From Patescibacteria group bacterium (GTDB lineage: Bacteria > Patescibacteriota > Patescibacteriia > UBA1558 > GWA2-36-10), in contig JAHJQF010000001.1 of assembly GCA_018819405.1 (NCBI GenBank), forward strand, positions 753,469-817,468: a stretch of DNA of 64,000 nucleotides, in the 5' to 3' direction. Positions 31,289-63,511 of the stretch are shown here, one piece after another. A program made the position numbers and the translations under genes. The notes under the pieces were generated by a model that made no database searches, was not told the DNA's origin, and saw only the letters and a program-made list of their open reading frames with translations. Each line of letters opens with the position of its first letter. Within the stretch, counting starts at the first letter, position 1.

Positions 31289-31312
31289 CCTCCACCATCG
31301 AGGCCTCCGACT

Positions 31313-31346: not shown

Positions 31347-31357
31347 AACCCCCTAAA

Positions 31358-31382: not shown

Positions 31383-31386
31383 AAAC

Positions 31387-31440: not shown

Positions 31441-31442
31441 AT

Positions 31443-31856
31443 TTAACGTTTTGACCATTGTGGAGCACGACGGGCTTTACGCAAGCCTGGTTTTTTTCTT
31501 TCTTTGATTCTGGAATCACGAGTCAAAAATCCTTCTTTTCGTAAACTGGTACGTAATTCTTCGTCAGTGGCTAAAAGTGCCTTGGCAATACCATGTCTAA
31601 TGGCGTCTACTTGCCCTCGCACTCCTCCACCATGGGTTTTGATTGAAATATTAATATTTTCACGTCCAGCTAGTTTTAGAGGTTTGAGAATCTCTTCTTG
31701 CCACTCAATATAATTTAGGTATTCTTTATAGTCTTTATCATTGATGGTAATTTTGATACCTTTTGAATTATCTTTCATAATCCTAACTCTGGCAATAGCG
31801 CTTTTTCTTTTACCAGTAGCTGGGGTGAAATCTTTATTTTCTTTCTTAACTGCCAT
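31443..31856 (-). CDS. rpsI: 30S ribosomal protein S9
   Basis: C-terminal ...RRAPQWSKR. 137 aa. Follows rplM. Confidence 0.9.
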   Translation of the reverse strand: MAVKKENKDFTPATGKRKSAIARVRIMKDNSKGIKITINDKDYKEYLNYIEWQEEILKPLKLAGRENINISIKTHGGGVRGQVDAIRHGIAKALLATDEELRTSLRKEGFLTRDSRIKERKKPGLRKARRAPQWSKR

Positions 31857-45947: not shown

Positions 45948-46046
45948 ATAATATATTTATTTTACCACAAAATACTATAAAAAACCACCCCGCTATTTCA
46001 GCAATTATCAACAAAAAAGTCAATATTTTAGATTGTTTATTTATCA

Positions 46047-46075
46047 TTGACAAAATTACTAAAATATGATATAAT
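46047..46075 (+). promoter_or_regulatory. consensus sigma70 promoter (island 2)
   Basis: TTGACA(46047-52), 17 nt (aaattactaaaataTGa), TATAAT(46070-75). Confidence 0.65.
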
Positions 46076-46163
46076 ATTACATTCTGAGCTTAAGTTTTGC
46101 TCGGAACCACCGCTCTCCACTTTGGAGGGCACGCACACTACAACACATTCGAGGAGGAGCCTC

Positions 46164-46835
46164 ATGGCCCAGCGCACGATTATCAAGCCGACCATCGAGA
46201 CCATCACCGATCTCAACCAGATCAAGCACAGCAAGCCCTGGCACATCCATACTCTCGAGAACATCGTCATCCTGCAGCGCCACTGGCCCCACACGGCCAA
46301 CGTCAGCCGGCGCCGGTACATCCGCCTGGCCCGCAAGATCGGTGCCATGATGGACTATCTGCCGCTCGCCTGCGCGATGTCGAGCCCCGAACCCCGCGCC
46401 ATCGAGGCGGCGCTCGCCTTCCAGAACAAGCACACCAAGCGCGTGCCGATCCGGACCGATGACCGCCTGGGTGCCTTGTCCGGCGCCGATCCCGAACTGC
46501 TGGCCCAGATCAAGGCCGGCGCCAAGAGCCTCGGCGTCACCCCCGAGACCTTCATCCTGGAGAGCGTCGAGCTCACCGACCTGCGCAAGCAGCGTGGCAA
46601 CGAAGGCGCCGAAGCGGTTCTGGAGATGGTCGACGGCCACATGGGCAAGACCTTCCTGGTCACCAGCCACGGTGGCTCGCGCCTGGAGCTCACGATCGCA
46701 GCGCTCGTCGGCCGCGATCAGTGTGGCTACCCCTGCCAGATGCCCGAGGGCGCCATCTGCTTCCTCAGCTTCGACGACAAGCAGAACATCAACTTCGAGC
46801 ACTACCTGGTCTTCGACAACCGCCTCCTCCGTTAG
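46164..46835 (+). CDS. histidine phosphatase superfamily (branch 1, PGM/SixA-like) protein, 223 aa, GC-rich foreign composition
   Basis: SD GAGGAGGAG sits 4 nt before ATG 46164. High GC3. Three ordered motifs: ILQRHWPHTAN (RH...N), AMSSPEPRAIEAALA (SSPxxRAxxTA-like) and FLVTSHGGSRLELTIAAL (VSHGG). The track ORF start at 46047 is the promoter TTG and was rejected. Confidence 0.5.
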   Translation: MAQRTIIKPTIETITDLNQIKHSKPWHIHTLENIVILQRHWPHTANVSRRRYIRLARKIGAMMDYLPLACAMSSPEPRAIEAALAFQNKHTKRVPIRTDDRLGALSGADPELLAQIKAGAKSLGVTPETFILESVELTDLRKQRGNEGAEAVLEMVDGHMGKTFLVTSHGGSRLELTIAALVGRDQCGYPCQMPEGAICFLSFDDKQNINFEHYLVFDNRLLR

Positions 46836-46863
46836 CCGCCCCTCATCGGCGGTTGACAAACAA

Positions 46864-46903
46864 GCGGCGGTTCGCAAGTGTGCGAACCGCCGCTCTTTCT
46901 TTT
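46864..46903 (+). terminator. rho-independent terminator (island 2)
   Basis: GCGGCGGTTCGCA-agtg-TGCGAACCGCCGC followed by tctttcttttg. Confidence 0.7.
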
Positions 46904-46986
46904 GCCAATTTTGCCCAAGAGTGTAACGATTGGTGCAAAATTGAGCATCCCGCGAAGCAAAGCAAAGCGGGATTTTTTATTTTTTA
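46899..46986. repeat. repeated terminator-like element, copy A (TTTTGCCCAAGAG..CGATTGG..GCAAAAT.GAGCATCCCGCGAAGC..GCGGGAT + T-run)
   Basis: ~65 nt is ~85% identical to 54421-54486. Ends in an ATCCCGC...GCGGGAT hairpin followed by ttttttatttttt. Confidence 0.6.
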
Positions 46987-47204
46987 GATTTCTTAAATAT
47001 CATAGCTGACAAAATAAAAGCAATGGTAAAAAATATTGCTCCATAAAAACATGGCTTCAAAAATGGATTGGTGATCCCCGGTGTACAGCCAAACTCATTA
47101 TTTTGATCAGCTAACCAAATTTTTAATTCGTAGCCAAAATTTCCCCAAGCAAATAATGTGCCTGCCAGTAGGATGTAAAATTGTGTGATAATTAATTTTT
47201 TCAT
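46977..47204 (-). CDS. small hydrophobic membrane protein (last gene of the PEP-utilizer operon)
   Basis: 75 aa, two hydrophobic helices, directly downstream of 47209..48666. Confidence 0.45.
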   Translation of the reverse strand: MKKLIITQFYILLAGTLFAWGNFGYELKIWLADQNNEFGCTPGITNPFLKPCFYGAIFFTIAFILSAMIFKKSKK

Positions 47205-47208
47205 TTGT

Positions 47209-48666
47209 TTATTTTAATCTTTTTATTATTCCCTGATTTGCGTCTACTTCTACTATATCACCATCCTTAAATACTTTTGTTGCAATTCTGGTGCCTATCA
47301 AACACGGCTTTTTCATTTCCCTGGCAACTATTGCCGCATGGGAAGTAATACCTCCTTGCTCTGTCACAAATGCTGCTGCTCGCTTCATAGCTGGTAATAG
47401 ATTAGGGTCAGTATAAATAGCCACCAAAATATCGCCCTCCTCTACTTTGTCTAAATCCTTGGGACCGTTGACTATTTTAACCACACCAGTCACTTTACCA
47501 AGAAAAGCCGCCTGCCCTTTGAGCTGATCACTGTCCTCTATCTTATCCTTAATAAAATCTTTCCTCAATATATCTAATTCATTTTTTGATAAAATAGATA
47601 ATTTGTCTGCCTCATAATACTGACAAAAAAAATCTTTTCTTTTTAAAATATTTTTATAATCAGACAAATTGCCAAATACTAAATCTTTGATTTCATCTTG
47701 GCCGGAATAATAAAAAGCGAGTTTTGGTATATCTAACTTTTGACTAAACTCCTCAAATAGTAGGTTTATCACATAACAAAAATAATATCTAATTCCTACA
47801 CGATAATTTTTAACATATGAAAAATCCCTAGCTACCGCAAAAGCAAACTTTTGATTTTTTTCCAATACTAATTGTTTTTCCAATTTTTCACGATCTTTTT
47901 TTATATTTAATAAATAGTCTTCATGTTCTTCTAGACTTTTGTCTGGATCTCCTTTGGATAATATTTCCTGAGCCCTTAAGACAAAATCATCTTCAGTCCA
48001 AGATGGCCCAATATATCCAAAGTTTATCCAATTATATTTTTTGGTATGTTTTTTAAATTCTATAGAATTTTTGAGATCTTCTATTTTTGAATATTTAACT
48101 AATAAAGCTATAAACTCTCTTTCTTCTTGCCAAAATATATTGGATTTTTCACTGGTAATCAGTTGATTTAATGTTTTAGAAATTTGATCCTGGCTGATTT
48201 TGTCTTTGAGAATATCTTCCAATCTGCTAGTCAAAAATCCGTGTTCTACATCACTTATTACTGCTACAAAACCTAATTCATTTAATTTTAAATAATTATA
48301 TACAACCTCATCAAACCAAATATTAAAATCGCTGGCTTTTAATTTACTAAAATCTTGTTTTATGATTTTGTCCAAACTACTTATTATTTTCTTACCATAA
48401 AACAAATGCTCATTTACCAAAGCATCTAAATCAAAAGTATTATTGAAGATATTATCAACTAATTTTGAACCCAGATTATTCCAGGCTGGCAAATCAGTAG
48501 CCCAATTGCCATCGCCATTTTCATAATAAACCAATTGATTTTTATAAGCTTTGCCCAGATATTTTTTTAAAATTTCAGAGACTGTAAAATCACGGCAAAT
48601 TGTCCACCAGACAAAATAATTAACTTCCTTTTCTTCAATTATTAATTTGAACTTGTTGTTTTTCAT
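47209..48666 (-). CDS. PEP-utilizing-enzyme mobile (phosphohistidine swivel) domain protein, paralog 1
   Basis: C-terminal ~90 aa: GKVTGVVKIV...GDILVAIYTDPNLLPAMKRAAAFVTEQGGITSHAAIVAREMKKPCLIGT...GDIVEVDANQGIIKRL (PF00391-like, His in TSHAAI). The N-terminal ~390 aa carries no recognised motif. Confidence 0.7.
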   Translation of the reverse strand: MKNNKFKLIIEEKEVNYFVWWTICRDFTVSEILKKYLGKAYKNQLVYYENGDGNWATDLPAWNNLGSKLVDNIFNNTFDLDALVNEHLFYGKKIISSLDKIIKQDFSKLKASDFNIWFDEVVYNYLKLNELGFVAVISDVEHGFLTSRLEDILKDKISQDQISKTLNQLITSEKSNIFWQEEREFIALLVKYSKIEDLKNSIEFKKHTKKYNWINFGYIGPSWTEDDFVLRAQEILSKGDPDKSLEEHEDYLLNIKKDREKLEKQLVLEKNQKFAFAVARDFSYVKNYRVGIRYYFCYVINLLFEEFSQKLDIPKLAFYYSGQDEIKDLVFGNLSDYKNILKRKDFFCQYYEADKLSILSKNELDILRKDFIKDKIEDSDQLKGQAAFLGKVTGVVKIVNGPKDLDKVEEGDILVAIYTDPNLLPAMKRAAAFVTEQGGITSHAAIVAREMKKPCLIGTRIATKVFKDGDIVEVDANQGIIKRLK

Positions 48667-50153
48667 AGTTTTTTAATTATTCCTCGGTCAGCATCCACCT
48701 CTATCATATCTCCGTCTTGTAAAATTTTAGTAGCAATTTTTGTCCCTACTACACAGGGAATATCCAATTCTCGAGAAACTATAGCTGCATGGCATGTAAT
48801 CCCCCCTTCATTAGTGACAATAGCAGTCGCTTTTTTAATTGCTGGCATTAAATCAGGGGTTGTAGCCTGTGATACCAGCACATCACCTTTATTCATTTTT
48901 TTCATATCTTCCATTTTATCTACAATTTTTACCCGCCCTTTTACCCGCCCTGCTTTAGCTGGCATACCTTTTATTTCTGATATATTTTTGTTTATTTTTT
49001 TATCTTCAGGAAACTCAAACAACTTCATTTTTTTGATTGCTGCCTGATCATAGTATTCCTCACGCTCGCCACTTCTATGAACAATCAAAAAATAATTAGC
49101 TATTCTTTTTTGAGCCAATGTTTTCAAATCTTTTTTATTTTCTATTTCATCTGAATAAAGATTCATAACTTCCAGAGTGGACAAGTTTAATCTTTCTCCT
49201 AGCTCTTTATAAATAAAACTAATATTATAACAAGCTTCCTGAAATTCATATTCTCTAATCCACTTATAATAACCAATATCAGCCACTAACTTAAAAATTC
49301 TTTCCTCCTGTTTATTAAGACCCAGTTCCGATACAGCCTTGACAAAATTATTCTGACTATATTCATCATAATTTTTTAGGTAGTCCAATCTTTTGAATAT
49401 ATTTGTGTTTAATTTCTCCAAAATCATATTGATATAATGATCCAAGTCCCAGCCCAACTCTCCAGCAAAATTGTAAGATAAATATCCGTGTTCTTGATGT
49501 ATTTGATTCAATTGATTTTCAAAATTATCCAAAATATCCTTAGCTTCTGCAAAATTTTTATCCTTGGCGATTTTGGCTAGCTCCAAAATTTTTATTTCCA
49601 AGTCTTGTGTCTTCATTTTATCCAATGGGCTAGTCAAATACATAAGATAATCAGCGAACCCGGACGGATTATCCTTGGTTTTATCTTTTAATATATTTTC
49701 CATTTGTTGATAAATAGGTGCCTGGTCAGTATAACCCATTAAAGTCGGCACCGTGCCGTATTTATAAAAATCAACAAACTTATTATCAAATTGGCGGCAA
49801 TAATCTACCAAATCACTTATATTTTTATCAGCCAAATTATTTTGCAAAATATTTTTTGTTAGAATATTCAATTCTTTGGCTTTTTTGTAAGCTGTTTTAA
49901 AAATATTATACAAGAAATCCGAATCTTTTTGCGAGCGCCTAAATAAATCGTCCATAGTACTTATTATCTCTTTCATGGAATAAATATAAGCTGAACGACC
50001 ATTTTGAAAAAAACTTATAGATTTCGTCATTTGATTGTCAGGAAAAACCTCGGTAAAATCTCTGACTGTCCCCAAACCAACTACATACATAAGATTTGGA
50101 GTGTATGGCCTGTCTTTAAAAATATAAATATATTGTTCTCTGTTTTTAGTCAT
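48663..50153 (-). CDS. PEP-utilizing-enzyme mobile domain protein, paralog 2
   Basis: GRVKGRVKIV...[41 protein letters not shown]...GDMIEVDADRGIIKKL. ATGA start/stop overlap with paralog 1. Confidence 0.7.
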   Translation of the reverse strand: MTKNREQYIYIFKDRPYTPNLMYVVGLGTVRDFTEVFPDNQMTKSISFFQNGRSAYIYSMKEIISTMDDLFRRSQKDSDFLYNIFKTAYKKAKELNILTKNILQNNLADKNISDLVDYCRQFDNKFVDFYKYGTVPTLMGYTDQAPIYQQMENILKDKTKDNPSGFADYLMYLTSPLDKMKTQDLEIKILELAKIAKDKNFAEAKDILDNFENQLNQIHQEHGYLSYNFAGELGWDLDHYINMILEKLNTNIFKRLDYLKNYDEYSQNNFVKAVSELGLNKQEERIFKLVADIGYYKWIREYEFQEACYNISFIYKELGERLNLSTLEVMNLYSDEIENKKDLKTLAQKRIANYFLIVHRSGEREEYYDQAAIKKMKLFEFPEDKKINKNISEIKGMPAKAGRVKGRVKIVDKMEDMKKMNKGDVLVSQATTPDLMPAIKKATAIVTNEGGITCHAAIVSRELDIPCVVGTKIATKILQDGDMIEVDADRGIIKKL

Positions 50154-50751
50154 TGAGCAAACTGGTCAAATATTTTCTAAAATCCTTAAAATTTTTATAC
50201 AGATAAGTATGAATACCCAGCTTCTTGGCATTTGGCAGATTAAAATACTGATCATCTACAAAAAATACCTCGTCTGCTTTGACTTTGTATTTTTTCAAGA
50301 CATACTTAAAAGTCTTAGCAGATCCTTTTGATAATTTTAGATCATAAGTGTTTATCAAATCAAAATGTTTTTTGAGCTGATATTTATTTACGACATATTT
50401 GAACTGACCGGTTGTATTTTTAGAAAGAAGTAGTATTTTATATTCCTTATTTTGAAGTGATTTAGCAAAATTAAAAACTGACTTATTGATATGTTGAAAA
50501 GAAAGATGTTTAGATCTAAATATTTTCCAATCTTCTTTCATACCAATTTCTTTGGCGGCTAGCTCAAAGGATTGTCTTTCAGTTATCTTGCCGAGGGATG
50601 CCGGAGTAAAATATTTGTGATAGACAATATCATAGCAAATATCAAAATCTATTTTGTATTTGCGACTAATCCACCGACAAGTTTCCTTGTAGCTGCCGAC
50701 ACTCATCACACCATATAGATCTATAATAATTAGCTTTATTTTTGGTTTCAT
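50146..50751 (-). CDS. HAD-superfamily hydrolase
   Basis: Motif I IIDLYGV (DxYG, haloacid-dehalogenase-like), motif II SKNTT, motif IV FFVDDQ. Confidence 0.55.
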   Translation of the reverse strand: MKPKIKLIIIDLYGVMSVGSYKETCRWISRKYKIDFDICYDIVYHKYFTPASLGKITERQSFELAAKEIGMKEDWKIFRSKHLSFQHINKSVFNFAKSLQNKEYKILLLSKNTTGQFKYVVNKYQLKKHFDLINTYDLKLSKGSAKTFKYVLKKYKVKADEVFFVDDQYFNLPNAKKLGIHTYLYKNFKDFRKYLTSLLND

Positions 50752-52178
50752 ATTTTTTTACAAAGTCCTGTTTTTATATCAATTTTTATTTTATCACCTG
50801 TCTTAAAAATTTTAGTTGCATTTTTTGTAGCCACTACACAAGGTATACCTAATTCACGAGAAACAATAGCAGCGTGAGAAGTAAGTCCTCCTTCATCTGT
50901 GACAATAGCTTTAGCTTTTCTCATAGCCACAATAAACTCCGGAGTAGTTATCGTAGTAATCAAAATTTCTCCTTGCTTCATTTTATTTATTTCTTTAATA
51001 CCAAACAATATACGAGCACGACTACTTACATTACCTCGGCCTCTGCTAATTACCAAACCTTTGACTGAATCAACTCCCTTAATAGTCTGTTCTGCTAAAA
51101 AAGGCTTGATAATTTTTAATGCCTGTTTCCCGTCTATGTGCTTATAACCGTTATTTTCTTTATAAATTGATAACAAGGCCATTTTCCTTTTTTTTGTATC
51201 AACAACCTTCCCTTTCTTAAGAAGAGTAATTAAATCAGGATAACTATAATAATATAAATCTTGGAGAGAAATTTTTAATCTCTTAGATATTTCTTTTATA
51301 AATTCATTTATAAAATAATCTGAAATAAGTATATACTGCTTGCGATAATCTTGCCACCACAAACAATATGCCACACCATTTGCTATTGATACAATTTCTG
51401 AATTTATTTTGAATTTTTTTATAACATTTTTTTTGTCGGATTTTATTTTTTTACTATAATTTTCAATTTCTTTTAATTTTTTACGAGCGCCGGCTTGTGA
51501 AATCTTACTTAATCTATTCTTAAAATATTTTTTATCTAATACTCTTACTTCAAAATAACTATTGGCCAGCCAGTAATATTTTTTGGCATGTCTTACCAGA
51601 GCAATTTCAATATCCTTTTTATTTTTAAGTAGTTTTATTTTCAATAGACTAAACTCTTCTTTTTGATAAAAAGACGATTTTTCTGGAGCTGGCAAGCTTT
51701 CTAAAATTTCCAAATAATTTTTTGGATATCTTTCCAAAACTTTATTTTTTAATAATCTTTCCCCTCCCCAGTTGCCAAGTTCCGGTAGCCATGATTTTAG
51801 CCAAAACTCTTCATAAAAATCATACCAGCTAATAAAAAATTTTATGAATTCCTTGTTAGAATAATTATCAAATCCTCTGTTTATTATTTTTTCATAATAA
51901 TTAAATTTTTTTAAAATTAAAATCCAATCTTTATATAATTTTTTTAACCTTTTTTTATTTAAGACATATTTTATAAATAATTTTTCTCCATTATCTCTCA
52001 ATTTTTTATCTTCGGCCAAAAATAAAAGTCGTTTATCTTTGAAATACAACAAAAAATCAGGCCAGCCTACACCAGCTATTTTTGGATATTTCTGAACAGC
52101 ATACATTGTGAGATCTGCATAAATAATTCTAGCATCTGCCGGTCCCCACCTAAATAATTCTTTTTTATAATCTACCAT
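50748..52178 (-). CDS. PEP-utilizing-enzyme mobile domain protein, paralog 3
   Basis: GLVISRGRGNV...[41 protein letters not shown]...GDKIKIDIKTGLCKKI. Confidence 0.7.
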   Translation of the reverse strand: MVDYKKELFRWGPADARIIYADLTMYAVQKYPKIAGVGWPDFLLYFKDKRLLFLAEDKKLRDNGEKLFIKYVLNKKRLKKLYKDWILILKKFNYYEKIINRGFDNYSNKEFIKFFISWYDFYEEFWLKSWLPELGNWGGERLLKNKVLERYPKNYLEILESLPAPEKSSFYQKEEFSLLKIKLLKNKKDIEIALVRHAKKYYWLANSYFEVRVLDKKYFKNRLSKISQAGARKKLKEIENYSKKIKSDKKNVIKKFKINSEIVSIANGVAYCLWWQDYRKQYILISDYFINEFIKEISKRLKISLQDLYYYSYPDLITLLKKGKVVDTKKRKMALLSIYKENNGYKHIDGKQALKIIKPFLAEQTIKGVDSVKGLVISRGRGNVSSRARILFGIKEINKMKQGEILITTITTPEFIVAMRKAKAIVTDEGGLTSHAAIVSRELGIPCVVATKNATKIFKTGDKIKIDIKTGLCKKI

Positions 52179-53010
52179 TTTTCTTTTGATTTATCATAGC
52201 TACCAACCACTTTATATGAAATTCAAAATCTTTTTCCGTGCGGCTATTATCTTCATAGTAATGAGATAAACCTAACTTAGTACCAATTAGCAACTTACCA
52301 CCAGAAGCTAAAATCATCCTAAACATCTGATTACCGACCATACCATTTGGTGGAATCAATAAATTATAACCTTCTTCTATAGCTATATTTGAATCAATAG
52401 ACCAATTTTTGACAATTAATCTTTCTTTGTTTAGTTTTTTTACTATCCACTGGGCGTCAGAATAAGTTTTGTTTAACTTGGCAACAATACCACTTTTTAT
52501 ATTTCTTTTACGCTTATAAGTATCATGCCTTACTCCGCTGAGCACACAAATTCTAGGTTTAATATTAAACCCTATCATCATATTGGCCGTAATAAGTGCT
52601 TTAGAAAAACGATCTTCTTTTGTCCAAGCCTCTGGATTACTGACAAAAGCAATAAAAATTTTATTTTTATTGGGCAGCTGCATTAACACAGGATTAGCTA
52701 ATGTATTTTCTCCTGTTAATTTTCTGTAAACTTCGTAAGTTTTAAAATCATCAATTGTTCCTCTTACCATTCCTTCTACCTCTCCATTTACCAACATTTC
52801 CACCAATTTCTTTTCGGGATTATTACTAATATTTAATTTGAATCCTTTTATACTGCTTATTTTCTTTGGACCAACAATATTAATATCCGCATATTTATGA
52901 GATTTTCTTAAACTGGTTAAAATGAGCTCATCAGGTTTATCAAGGCCAAAAGCTATTTTAGGATGTCGTAATTTTAATAATTTTTCTATTTTTTGGTCAA
53001 ATTTATCCAT
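52165..53010 (-). CDS. phosphate acyltransferase family protein (Pta/Ptb-like)
   Basis: LVEMLVNGEVEGMVRGT (compare Pta GEADGMVSG) and a C-terminal LLIPPNGMVGNQMFRMILASGGKLLIGTKLGL resembling the PTA_PTB C-terminus. Confidence 0.5.
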   Translation of the reverse strand: MDKFDQKIEKLLKLRHPKIAFGLDKPDELILTSLRKSHKYADINIVGPKKISSIKGFKLNISNNPEKKLVEMLVNGEVEGMVRGTIDDFKTYEVYRKLTGENTLANPVLMQLPNKNKIFIAFVSNPEAWTKEDRFSKALITANMMIGFNIKPRICVLSGVRHDTYKRKRNIKSGIVAKLNKTYSDAQWIVKKLNKERLIVKNWSIDSNIAIEEGYNLLIPPNGMVGNQMFRMILASGGKLLIGTKLGLSHYYEDNSRTEKDFEFHIKWLVAMINQKKNGRL

Positions 53011-53013
53011 ATA

Positions 53014-53526
53014 TTATCTTTTAAACAAATTTTTAAAAAATTCAGTCCTGTCCACATTGGCTACATGAGTAAACCATTCATCTTGAAATTTGTAAGCCAA
53101 GATAAACAACCAAATCCAGACAATATTTTTCTTGTACCACTGGGCTGTCTTTTCCCGCCCTTTGAACAACTCGGCTGTAGCGTAAATTAAAAATAATGGT
53201 TCTACCAGATTAGGAAAATAAAACAGCATCATTTCATCGCGAGTAAAAAAGAAAGAAAATTGTCCGATTGTCCTAATCAAAAATGTGACAATGACTTCTT
53301 TTTTTATCACTCTCTTCCAGCCCCAAATAACTATAAAAATATAAGTAGTATAATCAGCTATTTTATCTATTAATTGATATTTTTTATCTTCCAGTCCCAG
53401 AGGAATAAGTATATCTCCATCTACTGAGTCCAAAATAAAATTGGCCCAGCCGGCAAAAAATGGAAATTTCAAAATCAAAACCGGGAAGGCAAATTTTAAT
53501 AATATTATTAAGACTATAAAAAACAT
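53014..53526 (-). CDS. CDP-alcohol phosphatidyltransferase-like membrane protein
   Basis: LDSVDGDILIPLGLEDKKYQLIDKIAD approximates the D-G-x2-A-R...G-x3-D-x3-D motif. Several TM helices. Weak. Confidence 0.35.
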   Translation of the reverse strand: MFFIVLIILLKFAFPVLILKFPFFAGWANFILDSVDGDILIPLGLEDKKYQLIDKIADYTTYIFIVIWGWKRVIKKEVIVTFLIRTIGQFSFFFTRDEMMLFYFPNLVEPLFLIYATAELFKGREKTAQWYKKNIVWIWLFILAYKFQDEWFTHVANVDRTEFFKNLFKR

Positions 53527-53548
53527 ATACTATATATTTATTAAAAAT

Positions 53549-53833
53549 TTAAACCGCCCGAACTTCTTTTACCTCGGGCATAGCCCCTCTGATTTCTGCT
53601 TCTATCAAATGCTTTAGAGTCACATCAGCTAAAATACAGTGAGCACAAGCGCCTTGTAGTACAATCTCTACAATCCCCTTTTTCTTGTCATAACTCACTA
53701 GTTCCAAATTGCCATTGTCACGCATCAAAGCCGGACGAATACGATCTAGTATTTTATTTAATTTGTCCTCATCACTGAGTTTTTTTGACGCGGCCTTAGG
53801 CTTTGCCTTGGCTTTTGTTTTTGCTTTTGGCAT
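53549..53833 (-). CDS. NifU-like (Nfu) Fe-S cluster scaffold domain protein
   Basis: ILDRIRPALMRDNGNLELVSY...GACAHCILADVTLKHLIE (CxxC). Lys-rich N-terminal tail. Confidence 0.7.
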   Translation of the reverse strand: MPKAKTKAKAKPKAASKKLSDEDKLNKILDRIRPALMRDNGNLELVSYDKKKGIVEIVLQGACAHCILADVTLKHLIEAEIRGAMPEVKEVRAV

Positions 53834-53837
53834 ATAT

Positions 53838-53912
53838 GTAAATTTACCCTGTTAAATATTTTGCCCCGCAAAATACTGCTTTGCAGTATTTAACAGGGTG
53901 AATTAATTTTTA
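53838..53912. repeat. palindromic intergenic element (ACCCTGTTAAATAtt..gc ... gcAGTATTTAACAGGGT); a partial copy at 63521-63553
   Basis: ~17-bp inverted repeat around a ccccgcaaaatactgc core. A 25/26-nt match (TTTAACrGGGTGAATTAtTTTTATA) occurs at the 3' end of the partial rmlB. Confidence 0.5.
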
Positions 53913-54389
53913 TAAAAATTTTTAAACTGACTTATTATTTCTTCTTCACCGTTATTATTATATAAAGTATAGCAGTCTATCTTTGGTTCTTCAAATATTT
54001 TTTCTAGCTCATCAGCATATTTTTTGGATACAAAATGCTGTCTACCAACAAGACGTTTGGCCATTATATCTTTATCAGCCTTGAGTAAAATAAATTTTGC
54101 TTCTGGAAAATTGTCCAACATCATTTGACGAAACTTTTCTTTTATAAAAGCTTGACTAACAATTATATTTTTATATTTTGGTTTTAATTCATTTATTTTA
54201 GCTATAACAATGTTATAAAAATCTTCTCTGTTCTTATCAGTGGCTATATCATTTTTTTTTAATTTTGTCTATCAAATACTGAGGAATATCGCTATCAGCA
54301 TCATAATGATAAAAATCAAAATTTTTGGCTATCACATCGCCCACAAAATTTTTGCCTGCGCCAGGTTGTCCAAATAGAAATATGATCAT
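53903..54389 (-). pseudogene. gluconokinase/GntK-family P-loop kinase, interrupted by a +1 frameshift in an A9 homopolymer (coding strand) at 54252-54260
   Basis: N-terminus MIIFLFGQPGAGKNFVGDVIAKNF (Walker A) runs from 54389 to the A-run and stops after KKK. Removing one A restores a 162-aa ORF joined to the track ORF 53903..54124 (...ILLKADKDIMAKRLVGRQHFVSKKYADELEKIFEEP, GntK-like). Confidence 0.6.
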
Positions 54390-54424
54390 AATTTCTTTAT
54401 TATACCATTATTGGCATCAACTTC
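54386..54424 (-). pseudogene. 13-codon remnant of a PEP-utilizer paralog C-terminus (...[13 protein letters not shown]), stop overlapping the kinase ATG (ATGA)
   Basis: 45 nt nearly identical to the 3' end of 55854..57194 (…[13 protein letters not shown]). Upstream of this the sequence becomes repeat element B. Confidence 0.55.
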
Positions 54425-54486
54425 TGCCGATTTTGCCCAAGAGCGCAGCGATTGGCTGCAAAATCGAGCATCCCGCGAAGCGGGAT
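54421..54486. repeat. repeated terminator-like element, copy B
   Basis: CTTCTGCCGATTTTGCCCAAGAGCGCAGCGATTGGCTGCAAAATCGAGCATCCCGCGAAGCGGGAT. Homologous to 46899-46973. Contains the ATCCCGC-gaa-GCGGGAT hairpin. Confidence 0.6.
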
Positions 54487-54495: not shown

Positions 54496-55857
54496 CTAAT
54501 GCTTACTTAATTTTTTAACTATGCCGCGGCTAGCGTCTACCTCAACCATATCGCCATCTTTTAAAACTTTAGTAGCATAATTAGTACCAATTATACAAGG
54601 CTTTCCCAATTCCCTTGAAACAATAGCCGCGTGACAAGTAATGCCGCCTTCATCGGTAATTATAGCAGCAGCTTTTTTCATTAGAGGTACATATTCCGGC
54701 CTAGTCATACCTGTCACTAGTATCTCGCCTTTTTTAAAACTCTCTGTCTCTAAAAATACATTGGTAATAATTTTTACCTTGCCCTTGGCGTATCCAAGAG
54801 AACCCGACTGTCCTATTATTTTATTATCAAACTGATAATCTGTTCCAATATTATCATAAAATCTATATTCAAATTTTTTTGCTCCATCAGGGTATAACAA
54901 AACTGAAAAACCATTTTTCCTTTTTGCTATTTCTGTAATATTACTTCTTAAATATTTTGTCCCTTTTTCTATTTCCTCAAACAAACAAAAATTTATCAAA
55001 TCTTTGGACAGATTAGCCGTCTCAAAAATATGTTCGGCATATCGACCCATGATTGACAGAAGCATGCCAAAATAATCTTTTCTCTGATCACGCTTGTCTA
55101 TAGCCCATTGAAAAAAATCAGTCATTCTTCTCTCCTTTTCAGATAAATCATTTTTCCAACTAGTACTTTTGCCGTTTACTTTTTTATGTATTAATAAATT
55201 TTTATACTTTTCTTGTAGTTGTTTTTTAGTAAACTCAAAACTTAATATCCGGTCATAGGCTGCCTCCAAATACTGACATTTTTCAGTTATTTGATCCCAA
55301 TTATAATCTGCCTCCACTAATCTCTTTAATTTTTTTGATCCGCGATCATAAAAAGATTCCGTATTTAAAATTGAAGCCTTGTTCCAGAAAGAATCGTCTA
55401 GCTTACCAAAACGATCAAATACATCTTTATCTAAACCAATAGTAAAAAACGTCAAAGCACTCAAACTCCAAGCATTATCAACTATGCTATTTAAGTCTTC
55501 TCCTAAATCATTATTATTTTTTATATATTTATAAGTTAATTTACTATAAATATTTTCTATCTTTTGAGAAAACTTTTTAAAATTATCCTCCATTTTAGAC
55601 AAATGTTTTTTGTCTTCCCAAACCGAATACATTGTTTCCAAACAAGCTGCTTTTGAGTGACCTAAAGAAATATACATTAGACCAATATCTCCTTTGACCG
55701 AAATTAATAAAGGAAAAGAATAATTATTTTTATAAAGAGATCTAAAATATTTACTCTGATTCCACCCCCGTGTTTGATATATCAAAGCTGAATTCAAAAT
55801 AGGAGGAGATATCTCTAAACCATCTTGAGCTTTTAAGTATAAATCAACAATACTCAT
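54496..55857 (-). CDS. PEP-utilizing-enzyme mobile domain protein, paralog 4
   Basis: [10 protein letters not shown]...[49 protein letters not shown]...[16 protein letters not shown]. Confidence 0.7.
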
Positions 55858-57194
55858 AATTTCTTTATTATACCATTATTGGCGTCCACCTCTACCATAT
55901 CACCATCTTTTAAAACTTTGGTAGCATAATTAGTACCAACCACACAGGGCACTTTTAGCTCACGACTGGTTATGGCGGCGTGAGAAAGCATACCACCTTC
56001 ATCAGTCACAATAGCCGCTGCCAGACGCATGGCTGGAGTATAACGCGGATCAGTCATTTGAGCGACCAATATATCCCCCTTTTCAATTTTTGAAATTTCT
56101 TTATAAGAATTAACAATCTTAACTTTACCCTTAACTACGCCCCTCGTAGCTGATATGCCTTGAAGCTGATCAATATAATTAATTTGTTTTTTGACAATTT
56201 GTTTTATCTTTTCTATCTGAACTTTATCTGTGACAATATTTAATGACCCATCATAGTAATAAAGAAAGTTTTTCTCTCTTTTGGCCAAGTCAATTGCCTC
56301 AGGTAATTTAGCTTTGGTTAAAATGTCTTCAATTTCTTCATAGCTCAAATTCGCCACTGCTTTTAAACTAATATTTTCAAATTTATCCTTAAGATACTCA
56401 AAAAATCTACTAATAATAAACAAACTATGTTTCCAAGAATCCACACGATCATTTCTTAAAAATATATATTCATGAAATAATATGCATTTGGCTTTTATTT
56501 CTTCATCGTCTAGCTTGGAAATAAAATTATCAAACTCTTTTTTATGTCGAGAAAATTGAGCAAATATTTTTTCTACCTTATCTCTATCCAGCTCTTTGGA
56601 CATCTTCTCTAACTCCTCAATAGTATATATTCCCTCACCAATGTAATAGCTTTTTAACCAGCCGTACTTTTCCAAGGCCATTTGTGGCCCTTCCTCCAAA
56701 AGCATTTTTTCCATCAATTGATACTGAGTCGGTTTATCAGAGTTAATAATTTTTTCAAAATCTTCGGGGAACAACCTAATTAGCTCCGGCTCGGCATATT
56801 CTATCAAAGCAAAGGGTATAAGGATGTAATCAAAAAAATCATAAACTGAGGAAATGTAATTTTTAAATAATACAAAAAGTTCTTTATCCGATACCTTGCC
56901 TACTCCCTGAGATAATATTTTCGAACTCTCCAAAATTCTGTCCCTGGCCGGAATATAATCAGTCAAATGACTCTTGTAGTTTGATAATACTCTTTGGTAA
57001 GTTTTTTTTAAAACTTTTTTATATGAAGGCTCATCAAAATAATATGAACCCATCACACCATCCTCTTCTGGTATGACCACAAAAAATTTCATACCAGCAT
57101 CATAAATTGCTTTTAGATAATAAAATTCTCTGGCTATACCATAAGGACGGGTAGCCCATTTAAAAAATTTGTATTTGAAAAATTTATCTTCCAT
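55854..57194 (-). CDS. PEP-utilizing-enzyme mobile domain protein, paralog 5
   Basis: [11 protein letters not shown]...[49 protein letters not shown]...[20 protein letters not shown] overlap with paralog 4. Confidence 0.7.
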
Positions 57195-58915: not shown

Positions 58916-58937
58916 TATTTTAACTTAATTTTTTATA

Positions 58938-58966
58938 TTGACATTTTTATCTAAATATGATATAAT
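58938..58966 (+). promoter_or_regulatory. consensus sigma70 promoter (island 3)
   Basis: TTGACA(58938-43), 17 nt (tttttatctaaataTGa), TATAAT(58961-66). Confidence 0.65.
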
Positions 58967-59020
58967 CATACAATATTCGTTCCGCCTTGACAACACCAAT
59001 CTTAGGGAGGTTTCCAAGAA

Positions 59021-59461
59021 ATGAAGATAATCAAGGTCTACTCTGTCGGCCAGTTCTGGCACGACATGTATCCCCTCTGCCCGACCGGTTACACCCTACA
59101 GGTTATCATCGACATCCGCGGTGCCATTGCTGATCTCCTCGAGGAGATTGGCCCGATCGACGGCACCGAGAAGGTCTGTCAGGATCACATCATGTCAGCT
59201 CCCGGCTACGCCGAATGGCTGGAGCGCACCAACGACTGGCTCTACACCAACTACCTGAAAACGTTCCTGAAAAATAAGCAGTTCGAATGCCTCAATATCA
59301 TCTTCGTGTGCACTGGGGGCTTCCAGCGCTCGGTCACGACGGCCATCAAAAGTGCTGAGTACTTGCGCATACACTGCGCCGGTAAGGCTGAGGTCGTGGT
59401 CAAGCACCTGACCATGGAGATGACCAGGGGGCTGGCCAAGGAGATAACCAACAAGGGCTGA
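59021..59461 (+). CDS. Cys-X5-Arg P-loop protein, putative cysteine-dependent (DSP/LMW-PTP-like) phosphatase, 146 aa, GC-rich foreign composition
   Basis: SD GGGAGG sits 10 nt before ATG. High GC3. IIFVCTGGFQRSVTTAIKSAEYL matches the (V/I)xFVCxGxxxRS(x)T...AYL signature of PTP-fold phosphatases. A candidate general-acid Asp lies about 26 residues upstream. Confidence 0.4.
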   Translation: MKIIKVYSVGQFWHDMYPLCPTGYTLQVIIDIRGAIADLLEEIGPIDGTEKVCQDHIMSAPGYAEWLERTNDWLYTNYLKTFLKNKQFECLNIIFVCTGGFQRSVTTAIKSAEYLRIHCAGKAEVVVKHLTMEMTRGLAKEITNKG

Positions 59462-59479
59462 CAAATCCTTCGACCCTTA

Positions 59480-59523
59480 CGAGGTCCGTTCGCGTTTATA
59501 CGCAACTGGCCTCGTATTTTTTT
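59480..59523 (+). terminator. rho-independent terminator (island 3)
   Basis: CGAGGTC-...-GGCCTCG stem with an inner GCG/CGC stem, followed by tattttttt. Confidence 0.55.
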
Positions 59524-59526: not shown

Positions 59527-61056
59527 TTACAATTTTCTTACCATTCTCTTTTCAGCATCCACCTCAATTATGTCTCCATCTTTAAATACTTTGGTAGCAA
59601 ATTTTGTACCGACCACGCAAGGCGTAGATAATTCCCGAGCCACAATAGCCGCATGGCAAGTCAACCCGCCTTCGTCAGTGACAAAGGCGCTGGCTTTTTT
59701 CATAGCGGCTATAATATTTGGTGTAGTACTGACTGATACCAATATATCATTGTATTCCATCTTTGCCATATCAGCTGGATTATTGATTATCTTGACTGTG
59801 CCTTGGACTTTGCCAGGGCAAGCAGTTGTGCCTCTCAATTCTTTGATATTTTTTATTTCCTGTTCTTCTTCACGATGGATAGCTTTTTCAAATTCTTCTG
59901 CTTCTTGACCAATCAAGATAGACACTGTCTTATCCTGATTTGGTATTATAATGTGATATTTTTTAATACTATTTATAATTTTATTATCTGGTTCTTTACC
60001 ATCTACCAAACATTCTTTTATCATATCAAATGGCGTATTTCTAACCTGCTCGAGAGAAAGATGCAGACGCTTGCTTATTTCCGATTGCAATTTCTTAGCA
60101 TGATAATATGACTTGGCCTGATAATCTTTTCTCCGAGGCTTACCCCAGACAAATTTGCCGGCTAGATTCAACATATTTTTTTCACGTTCTGTCGGCTTAT
60201 ATTTCTTATAAAATTCTTGTTTCCTTTTTTCTAGATTTTTTCTTTTACTACCCAAATTTTTTAGTAGCTTCTCTGGGTGTTCCAACTTTATCAAATAATC
60301 ACGTATAAAACTCAAAAAATCCTCTTCGGTTGACTCTGGACCATTGTAAGCATAATAAACCCAGGCATGTTTATTAGTATGTTCTTCCAAATCTCTATAA
60401 AAATCTTTATGCAGTTCCTTTAGATCATCTAGACTTTTTGTCTCTATATCTTTACGCCAATTGTCATAATCCCAATACTTAACCATTATATTTAACAAAG
60501 CCTCTTCCTGATCCTGAGCAAATGAATTGGCTGGTGGTTCAGTAAATAAAGTATAGTAATCCTGATACTCTTTTTCGTTTACATTTTTTTTCAAATAATC
60601 ATTTAAAAAATTTTCTACATAAGTAAATTTTTGCCAATCAAGAACTGGTAAGGCTGTACCTACAGCATAAATTTTACCCTGATAATTATCAAATTTTTCT
60701 AAAAGCAATATCAATTCTTCCCCAGATAGTTTACTCAAATCAGGTTTATAAATATTATTTTCAGTCCAATTATTGAATTTCTCACCCATCTGATGAGATT
60801 GGTCAATTAAATTTTCAAAAAAATCTTTATCCTCCAGCGCCTTAGTTTTTAACTCCTCGTGAAGTTCCTGCCAAATCTTCATGTCAGCCAGGTATTCTAA
60901 ATCATTGTTTTTGGATATTATCCCCGCTACCAAAGTATTTTTTGTACCATTTACCTCTGGGTAATGAAAAAGGCCTTTGGTCCAAATATAATTTCTAAAA
61001 AAAGGAGAGTTGTAATCCCGGCCGACTATTTCCCAATTGTAATTTTTGTAACTCAT
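59527..61056 (-). CDS. PEP-utilizing-enzyme mobile domain protein, paralog 6
   Basis: PGKVQGTVKII...NDILVSVSTTPNIIAAMKKASAFVTDEGGLTCHAAIVARELSTPCVVGT...GDIIEVDAEKRMVRKL. Confidence 0.7.
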   Translation of the reverse strand: MSYKNYNWEIVGRDYNSPFFRNYIWTKGLFHYPEVNGTKNTLVAGIISKNNDLEYLADMKIWQELHEELKTKALEDKDFFENLIDQSHQMGEKFNNWTENNIYKPDLSKLSGEELILLLEKFDNYQGKIYAVGTALPVLDWQKFTYVENFLNDYLKKNVNEKEYQDYYTLFTEPPANSFAQDQEEALLNIMVKYWDYDNWRKDIETKSLDDLKELHKDFYRDLEEHTNKHAWVYYAYNGPESTEEDFLSFIRDYLIKLEHPEKLLKNLGSKRKNLEKRKQEFYKKYKPTEREKNMLNLAGKFVWGKPRRKDYQAKSYYHAKKLQSEISKRLHLSLEQVRNTPFDMIKECLVDGKEPDNKIINSIKKYHIIIPNQDKTVSILIGQEAEEFEKAIHREEEQEIKNIKELRGTTACPGKVQGTVKIINNPADMAKMEYNDILVSVSTTPNIIAAMKKASAFVTDEGGLTCHAAIVARELSTPCVVGTKFATKVFKDGDIIEVDAEKRMVRKL

Positions 61057-62057
61057 ATTTTCCTTATTATTCCCTTTTCAGCATCCACCTCTACCATATC
61101 ACCGTCTTTGAAAACTTTGGTAGCAAATTTTGTGCCAATCACACAAGGAATTTTAAGCTCTCTAGCTAATATTGCAGCGTGACAGACTATACCACCCTCA
61201 TCGGTGACAATGGCTGCAGCTTTCTTCATGGCCGATACAAAATCCGGCGTGGTCATAGGAGATAGCAAAATATCACCTTCATTAAAATCTACTATTTTAT
61301 TTTTCTTTTTCAAAATTTTTATTTTGCCTTTAGCATAACCTCTGAAAGCAACTTGACCTTTTACATATTGATTATCATCAAAATTTTCAAAAACAAATTG
61401 ATAATTTTTGTTTTGCAAGGCAAAGTCTTCCAAAGAGACAATTGAAGCAAATCTACCCATGTCTACCACAAAATTATGACTTCTTTTTTCCATTTCCTCT
61501 CTTGTCGGCATATTATCTACATCTTCTATGGACAAAGTATTGGCCAGTCCCTTGGATTGAGGATAGATAAATTCTATTGATCGGCGAACAAAATTGTCTA
61601 CTTTGTCAAAAAATACATCCTTATTACGTATCCTGTTGGCTATTTTCAATATTTTTTTATCATTTCTATCATCCATGGCTGTATAATAGAATATAACAAA
61701 ATACTTCATACCAGTAGTGGCCAAATTGATAAAATTTTTCAATAGCTCTACAGAATCGCTTTTGTCCTGAGACCAGATATTTTCCAGTTTACCAAGTAGC
61801 CCCTCATATTCATCCATTCTGGAAGCAAACCAATTTTTGTCGCTATTATTTTTTCTAAAGATCTCTTCTTTGTACCAATTGATGGCTTGTCTATTTTCCC
61901 AGACCTCCATCATGCCGTCGTTGATATAATAAATATTTTTTACTTTGTGCGGATTTTCATTATCATATAGACCAAAACTCAATGCCTTATCCCACATCTG
62001 TTCAATAATCAAAGGATAATCTCTGGTATATTCTTTTTCCAAAACTATTTTTTTCAT
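61053..62057 (-). CDS. PEP-utilizing-enzyme mobile domain protein, paralog 7 (short, 334 aa)
   Basis: RGYAKGKIKIL...[49 protein letters not shown]...[20 protein letters not shown] overlap with paralog 6. Confidence 0.7.
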   Translation of the reverse strand: MKKIVLEKEYTRDYPLIIEQMWDKALSFGLYDNENPHKVKNIYYINDGMMEVWENRQAINWYKEEIFRKNNSDKNWFASRMDEYEGLLGKLENIWSQDKSDSVELLKNFINLATTGMKYFVIFYYTAMDDRNDKKILKIANRIRNKDVFFDKVDNFVRRSIEFIYPQSKGLANTLSIEDVDNMPTREEMEKRSHNFVVDMGRFASIVSLEDFALQNKNYQFVFENFDDNQYVKGQVAFRGYAKGKIKILKKKNKIVDFNEGDILLSPMTTPDFVSAMKKAAAIVTDEGGIVCHAAILARELKIPCVIGTKFATKVFKDGDMVEVDAEKGIIRKI

Positions 62058-63511
62058 ATTTTTCTCACTACTCCCTTATCAGCATCTACCTCTACCATAT
62101 CCCCGTCTTTAAAAAATTGCATAGCTTTTAAACATCCTACTATACAAGGAATCTTTAATTCTCTAGAAATAATAGCAGCATGAGATGTAATACCACCTTC
62201 ATCCGCTATAATAGCTGCAGCTTTTTTAGCTACAACCATCATATTTGGCTGAGTCATGCTAGTTAAAAGTATTTCATCTTTTTTAAAGTTTTTAATACTC
62301 TCTTGAAGCATGTCTAGATTACCGGCTATAACTTTTCTTATCCTCCCGCGAGCAAATCCATGCATAGCAACCTGTCCTTTTATCAGACTATTAGTATTTT
62401 TTATTTTCTTGATTCTTTGATTAAAAATTTTTCTTGATTCTTTCGATCCAATTATTTCTAATTTTTCGTTAGAATAAATATTAAGTGCAAAAGATTTTTT
62501 ACGATCATTAACAATATCTTTTATATTACTAATTTTTTGTTTATTTAATAATTTTTCAGTTTCTAGTGGAGTCATAAATCCCAACAAATCTTCCAGTGGT
62601 ATATTTATTTCATCAGCTATTTTTAGCCACATTTTTCTAGCTAAATAATAAGATCCTGACCAGTAAGCTTTAATATTCATTCTTTCAACTGCTTGATTTT
62701 GAAGAAATATTGCTAAATATTTTGCTTCATTACTATCTTTATTAAATTTAATAAAAATCTTTTTCTGTTGATTTTTTAAATCATTTTTTAGTTTTTTCAA
62801 CCTATTTAATTCTTTCTTAAAAATATTTTTTTCTTCTTTTGCTCTAGTTTTTAAGAACTTCAAAATTTTATTATCATCGAATTGACCAAAAACAAGCCAC
62901 GGGTATTTTGAAATATGTTTTAAATAATTTAAATCATTCTCTTTTTTAGAAAGTAATCTTAGCCAGTCTATATTTTCTTTTTGTATATCGTCTAAAGATA
63001 CAGCCGTTGTTAAAATTCCAAAAATATCTAACCATTTATCCTTATAATACTTCTTAGTTATCTCCTTTAATCTCTGTTCTGCTGCGTAAGTAAATTCCAT
63101 GCGTGTACTACCAAAATAAGCAATAGAGTCTATAGAGTATTCAATAAATTTTTTATGATCTATAATAATATTTGAATTTTTTCTTTTTGAATAATCTATT
63201 TTTTCTATTTTTCTAATCCACTTCCACCAGTTGATAGATTCTTTTTTATATTTAATTTTATATTTTTTATAATAATGGGGATTTAAATATTTTTCTCCTT
63301 CTTTTTTAAACTTATCTAACTGACTTTCCTGCATATAAGCAGTGATAATTTTGCCATCAAAATAACAAAAAATTTTACCAAAAGAGTATATATCTCCTCT
63401 ATACAAAAGAGCTTTAGAGGTAGCCCAATAGTTAGACATTATTGGAATACTACTCCACATAAAAACCCAATTATCTTTCTTACTTTTTAATATATATACA
63501 TAATGATTCAT
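62054..63511 (-). CDS. PEP-utilizing-enzyme mobile domain protein, paralog 8
   Basis: HGFARGRIRKV...DEILLTSMTQPNMMVVAKKAAAIIADEGGITSHAAIISRELKIPCIVGC...[20 protein letters not shown] overlap with paralog 7. Confidence 0.7.
   Translation of the reverse strand: MNHYVYILKSKKDNWVFMWSSIPIMSNYWATSKALLYRGDIYSFGKIFCYFDGKIITAYMQESQLDKFKKEGEKYLNPHYYKKYKIKYKKESINWWKWIRKIEKIDYSKRKNSNIIIDHKKFIEYSIDSIAYFGSTRMEFTYAAEQRLKEITKKYYKDKWLDIFGILTTAVSLDDIQKENIDWLRLLSKKENDLNYLKHISKYPWLVFGQFDDNKILKFLKTRAKEEKNIFKKELNRLKKLKNDLKNQQKKIFIKFNKDSNEAKYLAIFLQNQAVERMNIKAYWSGSYYLARKMWLKIADEINIPLEDLLGFMTPLETEKLLNKQKISNIKDIVNDRKKSFALNIYSNEKLEIIGSKESRKIFNQRIKKIKNTNSLIKGQVAMHGFARGRIRKVIAGNLDMLQESIKNFKKDEILLTSMTQPNMMVVAKKAAAIIADEGGITSHAAIISRELKIPCIVGCLKAMQFFKDGDMVEVDADKGVVRKI

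Follow-up and report, generated by a model that had tools for sequence, protein, structure and literature searches.

The interval 50146-54389 of a 64-kb stretch of Patescibacteria DNA (referred to as the window; 64,000 nucleotides) holds five accessory genes embedded in an array of PF00391 (PEP-utilizer) paralogs, numbered here 1 to 8, and a first-pass annotation had read these five as members of one coordinated pathway. All five genes are present, and all lie on the minus strand, as do the genes under discussion generally, but the interval is best read as a composite and not a single pathway. Probably, an MtxX-like protein and paralog 3 form the core pair of a two-component dikinase system, to which a HAD-family hydrolase has been added, and the remaining three genes, for a NifU protein, a polytopic membrane protein and a P-loop kinase, are bystanders. 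The dikinase system of the core pair belongs to the rifampin phosphotransferase (RPH) family, which in this split form occurs widely among Patescibacteria and DPANN archaea. The source genome, from the Patescibacteria or candidate phyla radiation (CPR), measures about 1.04 Mb, and the window has a GC content of about 0.35.

Gene-neighbourhood conservation separates the five genes. MtxX-like genes were compared in 22 loci of Patescibacteria and DPANN archaea, namely 20 distinct loci, the P0050 locus (which is DNA-less) and the window itself. Of these 22, 16 have a PF00391 gene on the same strand no more than 40 nt away; when the distance is widened to 1.3 kb the number rises to 19, leaving L010, L013 and the truncated L021 without one. 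Two of the contigs are archaeal (archaeon GW2011_AR5 and a Nanoarchaeia metagenome-assembled genome), and the flanks of the loci are otherwise unrelated. Clustering of the N-terminal domains placed the PF00391 neighbour of MtxX usually in subfamily 0, the paralog-3 type (15 loci), and otherwise in subfamily 1. In the window, the start of paralog 3 overlaps the stop of the MtxX-like gene by 14 nt. MtxX and PF00391 genes stand side by side far more often than expected by chance. The complete set of five genes is not kept together in relatives, and the proposal of a single coordinated pathway did not survive the comparison.

A Pfam scan of 124 neighbour proteins from 19 MtxX loci returned PPDK_N eight times, Peptidase_M29 five times (seven Peptidase_M29/NicX-like proteins when counted by clustering), His_Phos_1 five times and FGase three times, and among the same proteins HAD, NifU, P-loop kinase and CDP-alcohol transferase were not recurrent. 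The phosphotransfer theme suggested earlier for the locus was right, but its partners, namely ATP-grasp proteins, phosphohistidine phosphatases and metallohydrolases, are for the most part not those then listed. Similarly, the view that these are not random neighbours stands strongly for the MtxX-like gene and, in a narrower clade, for the HAD gene, but is not borne out for the kinase, NifU and the membrane protein.

The MtxX-like gene (52165-53010; 281 aa; NCBI KKH39_04160) had been described as Pta/Ptb-like. The description is correct at the level of the fold, and the cited GEVEGMVRG motif is present, but the family is MtxX, or methanogen marker 4 (Mmp4). In a profile search the protein matched TIGR03270 (MtxX/Mmp4) with E 1.1e-19, the alignment covering residues 63-259 of the query and positions 4-192 of the 204 in the profile, at 70.6 bits against a curated cutoff of 190. 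It also matched PDB entry 9nzy (MTH_231) with E 1.3e-7, its Ser-Arg motif DNSR aligning to DTSR; S256 and R257 of this motif are invariant in 27 sequences. There are 94 homologs with 45-58% identity in Patescibacteria and DPANN. As judged from these profile scores, the gene is homologous to TIGR03270 without being an equivalog and represents a separate subfamily. Membership of PTA_PTB (PF01515) was rejected, since the Pfam search gave no PF01515 match at E<0.1 and PDB-level PTA matches were weak (Pta 7t88, E 1.4; PTA domain of MaeB, E 0.27). At one MtxX locus (L012, 3535-7056), two tandem genes of the iPGM type (bisphosphoglycerate-independent phosphoglycerate mutase) are located directly upstream of the MtxX/dikinase cluster and add a further enzyme of phosphotransfer to its surroundings.

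The crystal structure of MtxX, reported in 2026, revealed a PTA/PlsX-like fold with a conserved Ser-Arg pair and a cleft suited to an acidic and hydrophobic ligand, in which the catalytic Asp of PTA was reported not to be conserved (PMC12978539). The window protein shares with MtxX/MTH_231 near full-length homology, the PTA-type fold family, the Ser-Arg motif and a GxxxGxVRG element. It differs not only in its score below the cutoff, but also in that its subfamily occurs in Patescibacteria and DPANN instead of methanogens and adjoins PF00391 and PPDK_N genes, whereas the neighbours of methanogen mtxX are uppS, mmp2, mmp12 and mtxAH (PMC12978539). With PTA_PTB and PlsX enzymes it has in common the fold superfamily, an N-terminal G-E/A-D/E-G-x-V-x-G and a C-terminal Ser-Arg, and the use of acyl-phosphates by those enzymes fits a partner that makes phosphorylated small molecules; in contrast to them, it is shorter, lacks a Pfam match and has no known activity.

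The other half of the core pair, paralog 3 (50748-52178; 476 aa), consists of an RPH-type helical domain followed by a swivel domain. All eight paralogs have intact open reading frames (334-509 aa) and match PF00391 with E 1e-24 to 1e-27 (2.9e-26 for paralog 3). The catalytic His is kept in all eight within GGxT[SC]HAA, and the full T/SxxGGxxxH motif in seven, paralog 8 having Ala at the first position; in paralog 3 the catalytic residue is His435, within TDEGGLTSHAA. Paralog 3, alone among the eight, was modelled with AlphaFold2 (pLDDT 93.5, pTM 0.91) and compared by Foldseek, and its top match was the Listeria rifampin phosphotransferase RPH-Lm (5fbu, 5fbt and 5hv1; E 1.8e-13, TMq 0.59), spanning the RIF-binding and swivel domains over about 565 aligned columns. 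The C-terminal swivel domains are 43-70% identical between paralogs and the N-terminal 230-400 residues at most 27%, with many pairs undetectable by BLAST, a comparison that rejects a recent duplication of the N-domains. An ATP-grasp domain hidden in these N-termini was likewise rejected, as no paralog gave a PPDK_N match and the N-domain of paralog 3 is helical and RPH-like.

A HMMER search with the N-domain of paralog 3 retrieved 1199 cluster representatives at E <=0.001, and the best 150 of these 1199 are mostly about 470-490 aa long and begin with this N-domain. Six fused relatives of 746-1147 aa, chosen because of an extra N-terminal stretch of ~285-330 aa, all carry an N-terminal PPDK_N domain (E 1e-69 to 1e-101), with the PEP-utilizers domain C-terminal. 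These fusions are evidence, of the Rosetta-stone kind, for cooperation between the split proteins and an ATP-grasp partner. The paralogs are predicted to be the substrate-binding and swivel-His halves of two-component RPH-family small-molecule dikinases.

Two-component systems of this type have been reported as HpeHI, CreHI and PpsAB (phenylphosphate synthase), in which a stand-alone ATP-grasp protein is paired with a separate RIF-binding/swivel protein and for which the T/SxxGGxxxH motif was defined (PMC12167813). The modules described here follow the domain logic of these systems and of single-chain RPH, in which an ATP-grasp component acts with a protein whose helical, RIF-binding-like domain precedes a swivel domain bearing that motif. 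The paralog-3 model superposes on RPH-Lm and the fused relatives repeat the three-domain RPH layout, while related loci encode, as do the two-component systems, a separate PPDK_N protein of about 313 aa. However, the known examples are single gene pairs devoted to aromatic catabolism or antibiotic resistance in free-living bacteria, whereas here up to eight tandem, translationally coupled modules with N-domains as divergent as stated above are carried by a ~1-Mb genome of the episymbiont type. Their partners, in place of carboxylases, are an MtxX-like protein, phosphatases of the SixA-like type and M29/FGase hydrolases, and the window contains no ATP-grasp gene. A further tandem array was seen in a Woesearchaeota locus (L036, 6628-16083), where seven PF00391 paralogs follow one another with 4-nt start/stop overlaps; a RimK-type ATP-grasp gene lies upstream, with no MtxX or PPDK_N within 8 kb.

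PPDK_N, either standalone or fused, occurs in eight MtxX loci, in the P0050 locus and in L030-L032; in all, the partner is present in 11 related loci. One of the recurrent 290-aa His_Phos neighbours matches the SixA phosphohistidine phosphatase (TIGR00249, E 4e-6) and has an RHG motif, a match that fits a phosphohistidine system and makes this protein a candidate for resetting the phosphohistidine. Genes for such RHG histidine phosphatases of ~290 aa recur within MtxX/dikinase clusters, at 14448-15329 in L001, 12321-13205 in L016, 2825-3658 in L019 and 896-1774 in L032.

The third conserved element is the HAD-IA hydrolase (50146-50751; 201 aa), for which the profile searches confirmed the initial assignment (PF13419, E 4.5e-11, 43.6 bits against a cutoff of 23.8; TIGR01509, 33.7 against 29.4). 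Its DxYG motif I reads IIDLYGV, with Tyr replacing the Asp+2 general acid, and DLYGV is kept in four relatives together with the LLLSKNT and FVDDQ motifs. The gene overlaps paralog 3 by 4 nt and paralog 2 by 8 nt and is translationally coupled to them. A metagenome scan found the four relatives, with 50-66% identity, in PF00391 operons without exception, three of them also with PPDK_N. The gene orders are MatE-kinase-NifU-HAD-paralog-1 ortholog in L029, RmlA-NifU-x-PEPut(622 aa)-HAD-PPDK_N-m115-MraY in L030/L031 and, in a different arrangement at 39% GC, PEPut-HAD-HisPhos-PEPut(626 aa)-PPDK_N in L032. The HAD is a genuine accessory that is restricted to a narrower clade.

The remaining three genes look like bystanders of the dikinases. 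NifU (53549-53833; 94 aa) recurs only in the syntenic Rml-to-MraY backbone (L029, L030/L031 and P0050) and is absent from the other 20 MtxX loci; it is probably a bystander. The kinase reappears in L029 alone, a close syntenic relative. Homologs of the membrane protein (53014-53526; 170 aa) were inspected in four loci from other genomes, representing three distinct contexts, and their neighbours were unrelated to PF00391, so that an association of this protein with PF00391 genes was rejected. Syntenic relatives with one or two paralogs have the order RmlB-RmlD-RmlA-(MatE)-NifU-MtxX-PEPut-PPDK_N-…-MraY, and the window has eight modules at three insertion places in a backbone that holds one or two in these relatives. 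NifU, the membrane protein and the kinase would be part of an ancestral RmlBDA…MraY backbone that later received dikinase paralogs by insertion and duplication.

Taken together, these data suggest the following order of events for the composite reading. A separate ATP-grasp protein (PPDK_N, about 313 aa) would use ATP to phosphorylate the swivel His of each paralog; of this step, the domain architecture, the fusions and the precedent are established. The swivel domain would then deliver the phosphoryl group to a small molecule held in the helical domain of the same module. Divergent helical pockets imply different substrates, and the eight paralogs may be seen as eight substrate modules sharing one conserved phospho-carrier interface. 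Subsequently, a dimer of the MtxX-like protein could bind the phosphorylated and probably amphipathic product in its Ser-Arg cleft and transfer or exchange the phosphate-bearing group, by analogy with the action of PTA and PlsX on acyl-phosphates. The lineage-specific HAD, with its DxYG motif and no general acid, might remove or accept a phosphoryl group. Resetting of the phospho-histidine in relatives would probably fall to the SixA-like histidine phosphatases, and these, like the HAD, could take phosphate off the product or the carrier His. The M29- or FGase-type metallohydrolases of relatives hint at amide-containing substrates. Any specific chemistry in this scheme is much less certain than the composite reading itself.

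Several observations weigh against this scheme. Neither the 64-kb window nor the 10 kb past its right end yielded PPDK_N or any other ATP-grasp gene, and hence no phospho-donor for the array was found in these 74 kb. A tblastn search of the window for PPDK_N, NicX/M29, SixA-like and FGase proteins likewise gave nothing credible, the best hit (E 0.006) falling in an unrelated region. The MtxX loci L010 and L013 have no PF00391 gene in the available flank, and in four DPANN loci the paralog-3 ortholog lacks an MtxX gene within 8 kb; seen from the dikinase side, the link is therefore frequent but not obligatory. MtxX itself has no demonstrated activity in any organism and no known ligand (PMC12978539). 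Decay or rearrangement of the locus is also apparent from the frameshift in the kinase, the remnant of a paralog and the foreign cassette. Lastly, NifU and the membrane protein are separated by 22 nt and the membrane protein and MtxX by 3 nt; both genes are probably co-transcribed with MtxX here, and a local functional link to MtxX is possible.

The missing donor leads to the alternative that has kept most of its ground, in which the array works without an ATP-grasp partner, by metabolite-to-metabolite phosphate exchange or from another donor, or is decaying after its PPDK_N gene was replaced by a foreign cassette. In L030/L031 and P0050, PPDK_N lies just upstream of m115-MraY (6612-8033 in L030 being the slot compared, with PPDK_N at 6612-7553), and the same slot in the window (45948-47208) is occupied by a 75-aa membrane ORF and a His_Phos_1 cassette of 64% GC. 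The Woesearchaeota array described above shows that seven paralogs can also occur without PPDK_N within 8 kb, and HpeH alone transfers phosphate from 4-phosphoacetophenone to acetovanillone, providing a precedent for movement of phosphate between compounds (PMC12167813). The frameshift and the remnant fit decay, but all eight paralogs have retained intact reading frames and the catalytic His, and a PPDK_N gene may sit elsewhere in the 1.04-Mb genome. On balance, either form of this alternative appears rather unlikely.

The composite reading can also be extended to a dikinase hub, in which, in ultrasmall symbionts of the Patescibacteria and DPANN, one ATP-grasp protein would serve many interchangeable substrate modules that use phosphorylation to trap scavenged host metabolites, MtxX-family proteins would process the products, and the paralog-3/MtxX module, the most conserved one, may act on precursors of isoprenoid or polyprenyl-phosphate lipid carriers. 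In the DPANN locus L034 (6161-11525), a paralog-3 ortholog is part of a tight UbiX-UbiD-PEPut-AcnX(large)-178aa-AcnX(small) operon with GHMP-kinase and AA_kinase genes nearby, a gene set that we take to be the archaeal modified mevalonate pathway. In L035 (7219-9512), the start of another paralog-3 ortholog overlaps the stop of BacA/UppP, the undecaprenyl-diphosphatase. Together with the methanogen mtxX beside uppS and the window locus abutting MraY, these two cases hint at isoprenoids, but no isoprenoid family is recurrent among the neighbours of the 19 scanned MtxX loci, and the extension is put forward as a speculation with a small chance of being correct.

A pure bystander origin, in which the array grew by tandem duplication and unequal crossing-over inside a cell-envelope operon and adjacency merely reflects insertion history, would explain why relatives have the same Rml…NifU…MraY backbone with only one or two paralogs. 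The 72-nt 3' ends of the paralogs are 61-86% identical and could drive such recombination, and a 43-nt junction remnant is present. This explanation is nevertheless very unlikely for the core pair and the HAD, because the MtxX-PF00391 adjacency persists with wholly different flanks in archaea and bacteria and the HAD-PF00391 adjacency is found in the differently arranged L032. One coordinated phosphotransfer or activated-precursor pathway formed by all five accessory genes and the phosphohistidine carriers is least credible, as the tight one-strand packing from NifU through paralog 1 (overlaps or gaps <=22 nt), the plausible handling of phosphoryl or phospho-ester groups by four of the five products and the contiguous kinase-NifU-HAD-paralog order of L029 are outweighed by neighbourhood conservation, which largely refutes it: beyond the closest syntenic relatives, 20 MtxX loci lack NifU, the kinase and the membrane protein, none of which recurs in the 124 neighbours, homologs of the membrane protein have unrelated neighbours elsewhere, the window kinase is frameshifted and that of L029 is preceded by MatE and not by a paralog.

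The components of the composite system, that is, RPH-family two-component dikinases, MtxX and HAD proteins, are already known. The searchable literature on PF00391/PEP-utilizers or MtxX in combination with CPR/Patescibacteria or DPANN gave no description of an MtxX-dikinase association, and neither the accessory set of PPDK_N, SixA-like and M29/FGase proteins nor multi-module tandem arrays in CPR/DPANN were found described. The pairing of MtxX with one split-dikinase subfamily in two domains of life, often with translational coupling, offers a testable functional lead and a first gene-neighbourhood clue to the role of the MtxX family, for which the phosphorylated product of the partner is the obvious candidate ligand. 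If the hub or isoprenoid extension were true, it would supply the first functional context for methanogen marker protein 4. Since two-component dikinases are known from aromatic catabolism, seven to eight tandem and diverged modules in ~1-Mb genomes are unexpected; eight such genes take up a noticeable share of the coding capacity of metabolism-poor organisms and suggest an important role in scavenging or activation, in keeping with an episymbiotic lifestyle. For annotation, the locus illustrates that a tidy, themed cluster may survive a test of neighbourhood conservation only in part.

Among the bystanders, the Nfu-type NifU was assigned as initially proposed (PF01106, E 2e-20, 73 bits against a cutoff of 27) and contains a CxxC motif, GACAHC. 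The membrane protein had been called CDP-alcohol phosphatidyltransferase-like, a resemblance that extends to motif spacing and, weakly, to the fold, but not to profiles. It has no Pfam match, nor does any listed homolog contain a Pfam domain, and membership of CDP-OH_P_transf was rejected at the profile level. An alignment of 35 homologs revealed an invariant D33xxD36G37-x16-D54xxxD58 with the canonical spacing of CDP-alcohol transferases, in which the Ala-Arg and second Gly of the signature D1xxD2G1xxAR…G2xxxD3xxxD4 are missing. In a Foldseek search of the PDB with its AlphaFold2 model (pLDDT 90.6), all of the top 14 matches were CDP-alcohol phosphotransferases, although weak ones (E 0.6-5, TM 0.4-0.5).

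A distant relationship of the membrane protein to the CDP-alcohol phosphotransferases (PF01066; PDB 7pow, 5d92, 4mnd, 6h59 and 4o6m), short of membership, is plausible, with the D-x2-D-G-x16-D-x3-D spacing and a predicted all-helical polytopic membrane fold in common. The window protein differs in its length of only 170 aa as well as in the absent profile match and signature residues and the poor Foldseek E-values given above, and it belongs to a highly conserved multi-phylum family of its own without annotated function. This family counts 330 homologs, with 50-66% identity across Patescibacteria, Chloroflexi, Latescibacteria and Anaerolineales. About 40 residues are invariant among the window copy and P0216-P0334, including those of DxxDG…DxxxD, FPNxxEPLFL and YKxQDE, and in L027/L028 the gene adjoins one of the inositol-monophosphatase family.

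The kinase gene (53903-54389) is split by a +1 frameshift. Its P-loop ORF (54389-54249; 46 aa) ends after a run of nine A at 54252-54260, and the rest is found at 54124-53903. Removal of one A restores a protein of 161 aa, colinear over its whole length with the intact ortholog of L029 (5189-5674), the frameshift site comprising 34 nt in the window and 33 nt in L029; a misassembly, pseudogene formation or slippage could account for it. The repaired protein matches AAA_18 and SKI as well as the gluconokinase profile TIGR01313 (E 1.2e-12), the last with 47.9 bits against a cutoff of 113.75, which the intact ortholog also fails to reach at 60.8 bits. The GntK-like label given previously therefore holds after repair and only in a broad sense: judged from these matches, this is a P-loop kinase of the GntK/shikimate-kinase type and not a TIGR01313 member.

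The kinase had further been thought to be translationally coupled to a now-deleted paralog. The remnant invoked for this is real, as 43 nt at 54386-54428 share 91% identity with the 3' end of paralog 5 (55854-55896) and their TGA overlaps the ATG of the kinase; the gene that precedes the kinase in L029, however, is MatE and not a paralog. The remnant is possibly the trace of a deleted paralog, or else a junction duplication left by insertion of paralog 4 and its terminator element.

Starting at the right end of the window and proceeding in the direction of MraY, the genes are RmlB, paralogs 8-7-6 (62054-63511, 61053-62057 and 59527-61056), a RapZ_C-like gene on the opposite strand, RmlD, RmlA and paralogs 5-4 (55854-57194 and 54496-55857). 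These are followed by a 60-nt element, the paralog remnant, the frameshifted kinase, NifU, the membrane protein, the MtxX-like gene, paralog 3, the HAD and paralogs 2-1 (48663-50153 and 47209-48666; PF00391 E ~1e-25 for each), and then by a 75-aa gene, a high-GC His_Phos_1 gene on the opposite strand, a 115-aa gene, MraY, MurD, FtsW and MurG. From MtxX through paralog 1, each gene overlaps the next by 4-14 nt.

The cassette in the slot compared above (46046-46958, plus strand) comprises a perfect sigma-70 promoter box of the form TTGACA-17-TGnTATAAT, the His_Phos_1 gene (46164-46835), a strong terminator and a copy of the 60-nt element. It is one of three single-gene islands of 54-64% GC, against ~31-35% for the genome, located at 30434-31500, 46046-46958 and 58937-59500 and encoding an unknown ORF, the His_Phos_1 protein and the RapZ_C-like protein, respectively. 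A near-identical AT-rich box of 30 nt with the perfect promoter precedes two of the islands and a similar box the third; none of 100 shuffles gave two such promoter hits. These islands look like recently acquired, promoter-equipped cassettes.

The copies of the 60-nt element (54421-54481, minus strand, directly 3' of paralog 4, and 46899-46958) are 86-96% identical, and each follows directly the stop of a minus-strand gene. The element contains a hairpin, ATCCCGC…GCGGGAT, with a terminator-like site at 54487-54469; the copy at 46899-46958 adjoins the high-GC cassette, that at 54421-54481 the paralog remnant. Searches of the whole window with Rfam, at the gathering threshold, and with ARAGORN gave no matches; neither the 60-nt repeat nor the hairpins correspond to a known RNA. 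A further inverted repeat at 53832-53913, with 27-nt arms that are 81% complementary, fills the gap between the kinase and NifU and may, from its sequence and position, be a transcriptional boundary or a regulatory hairpin.

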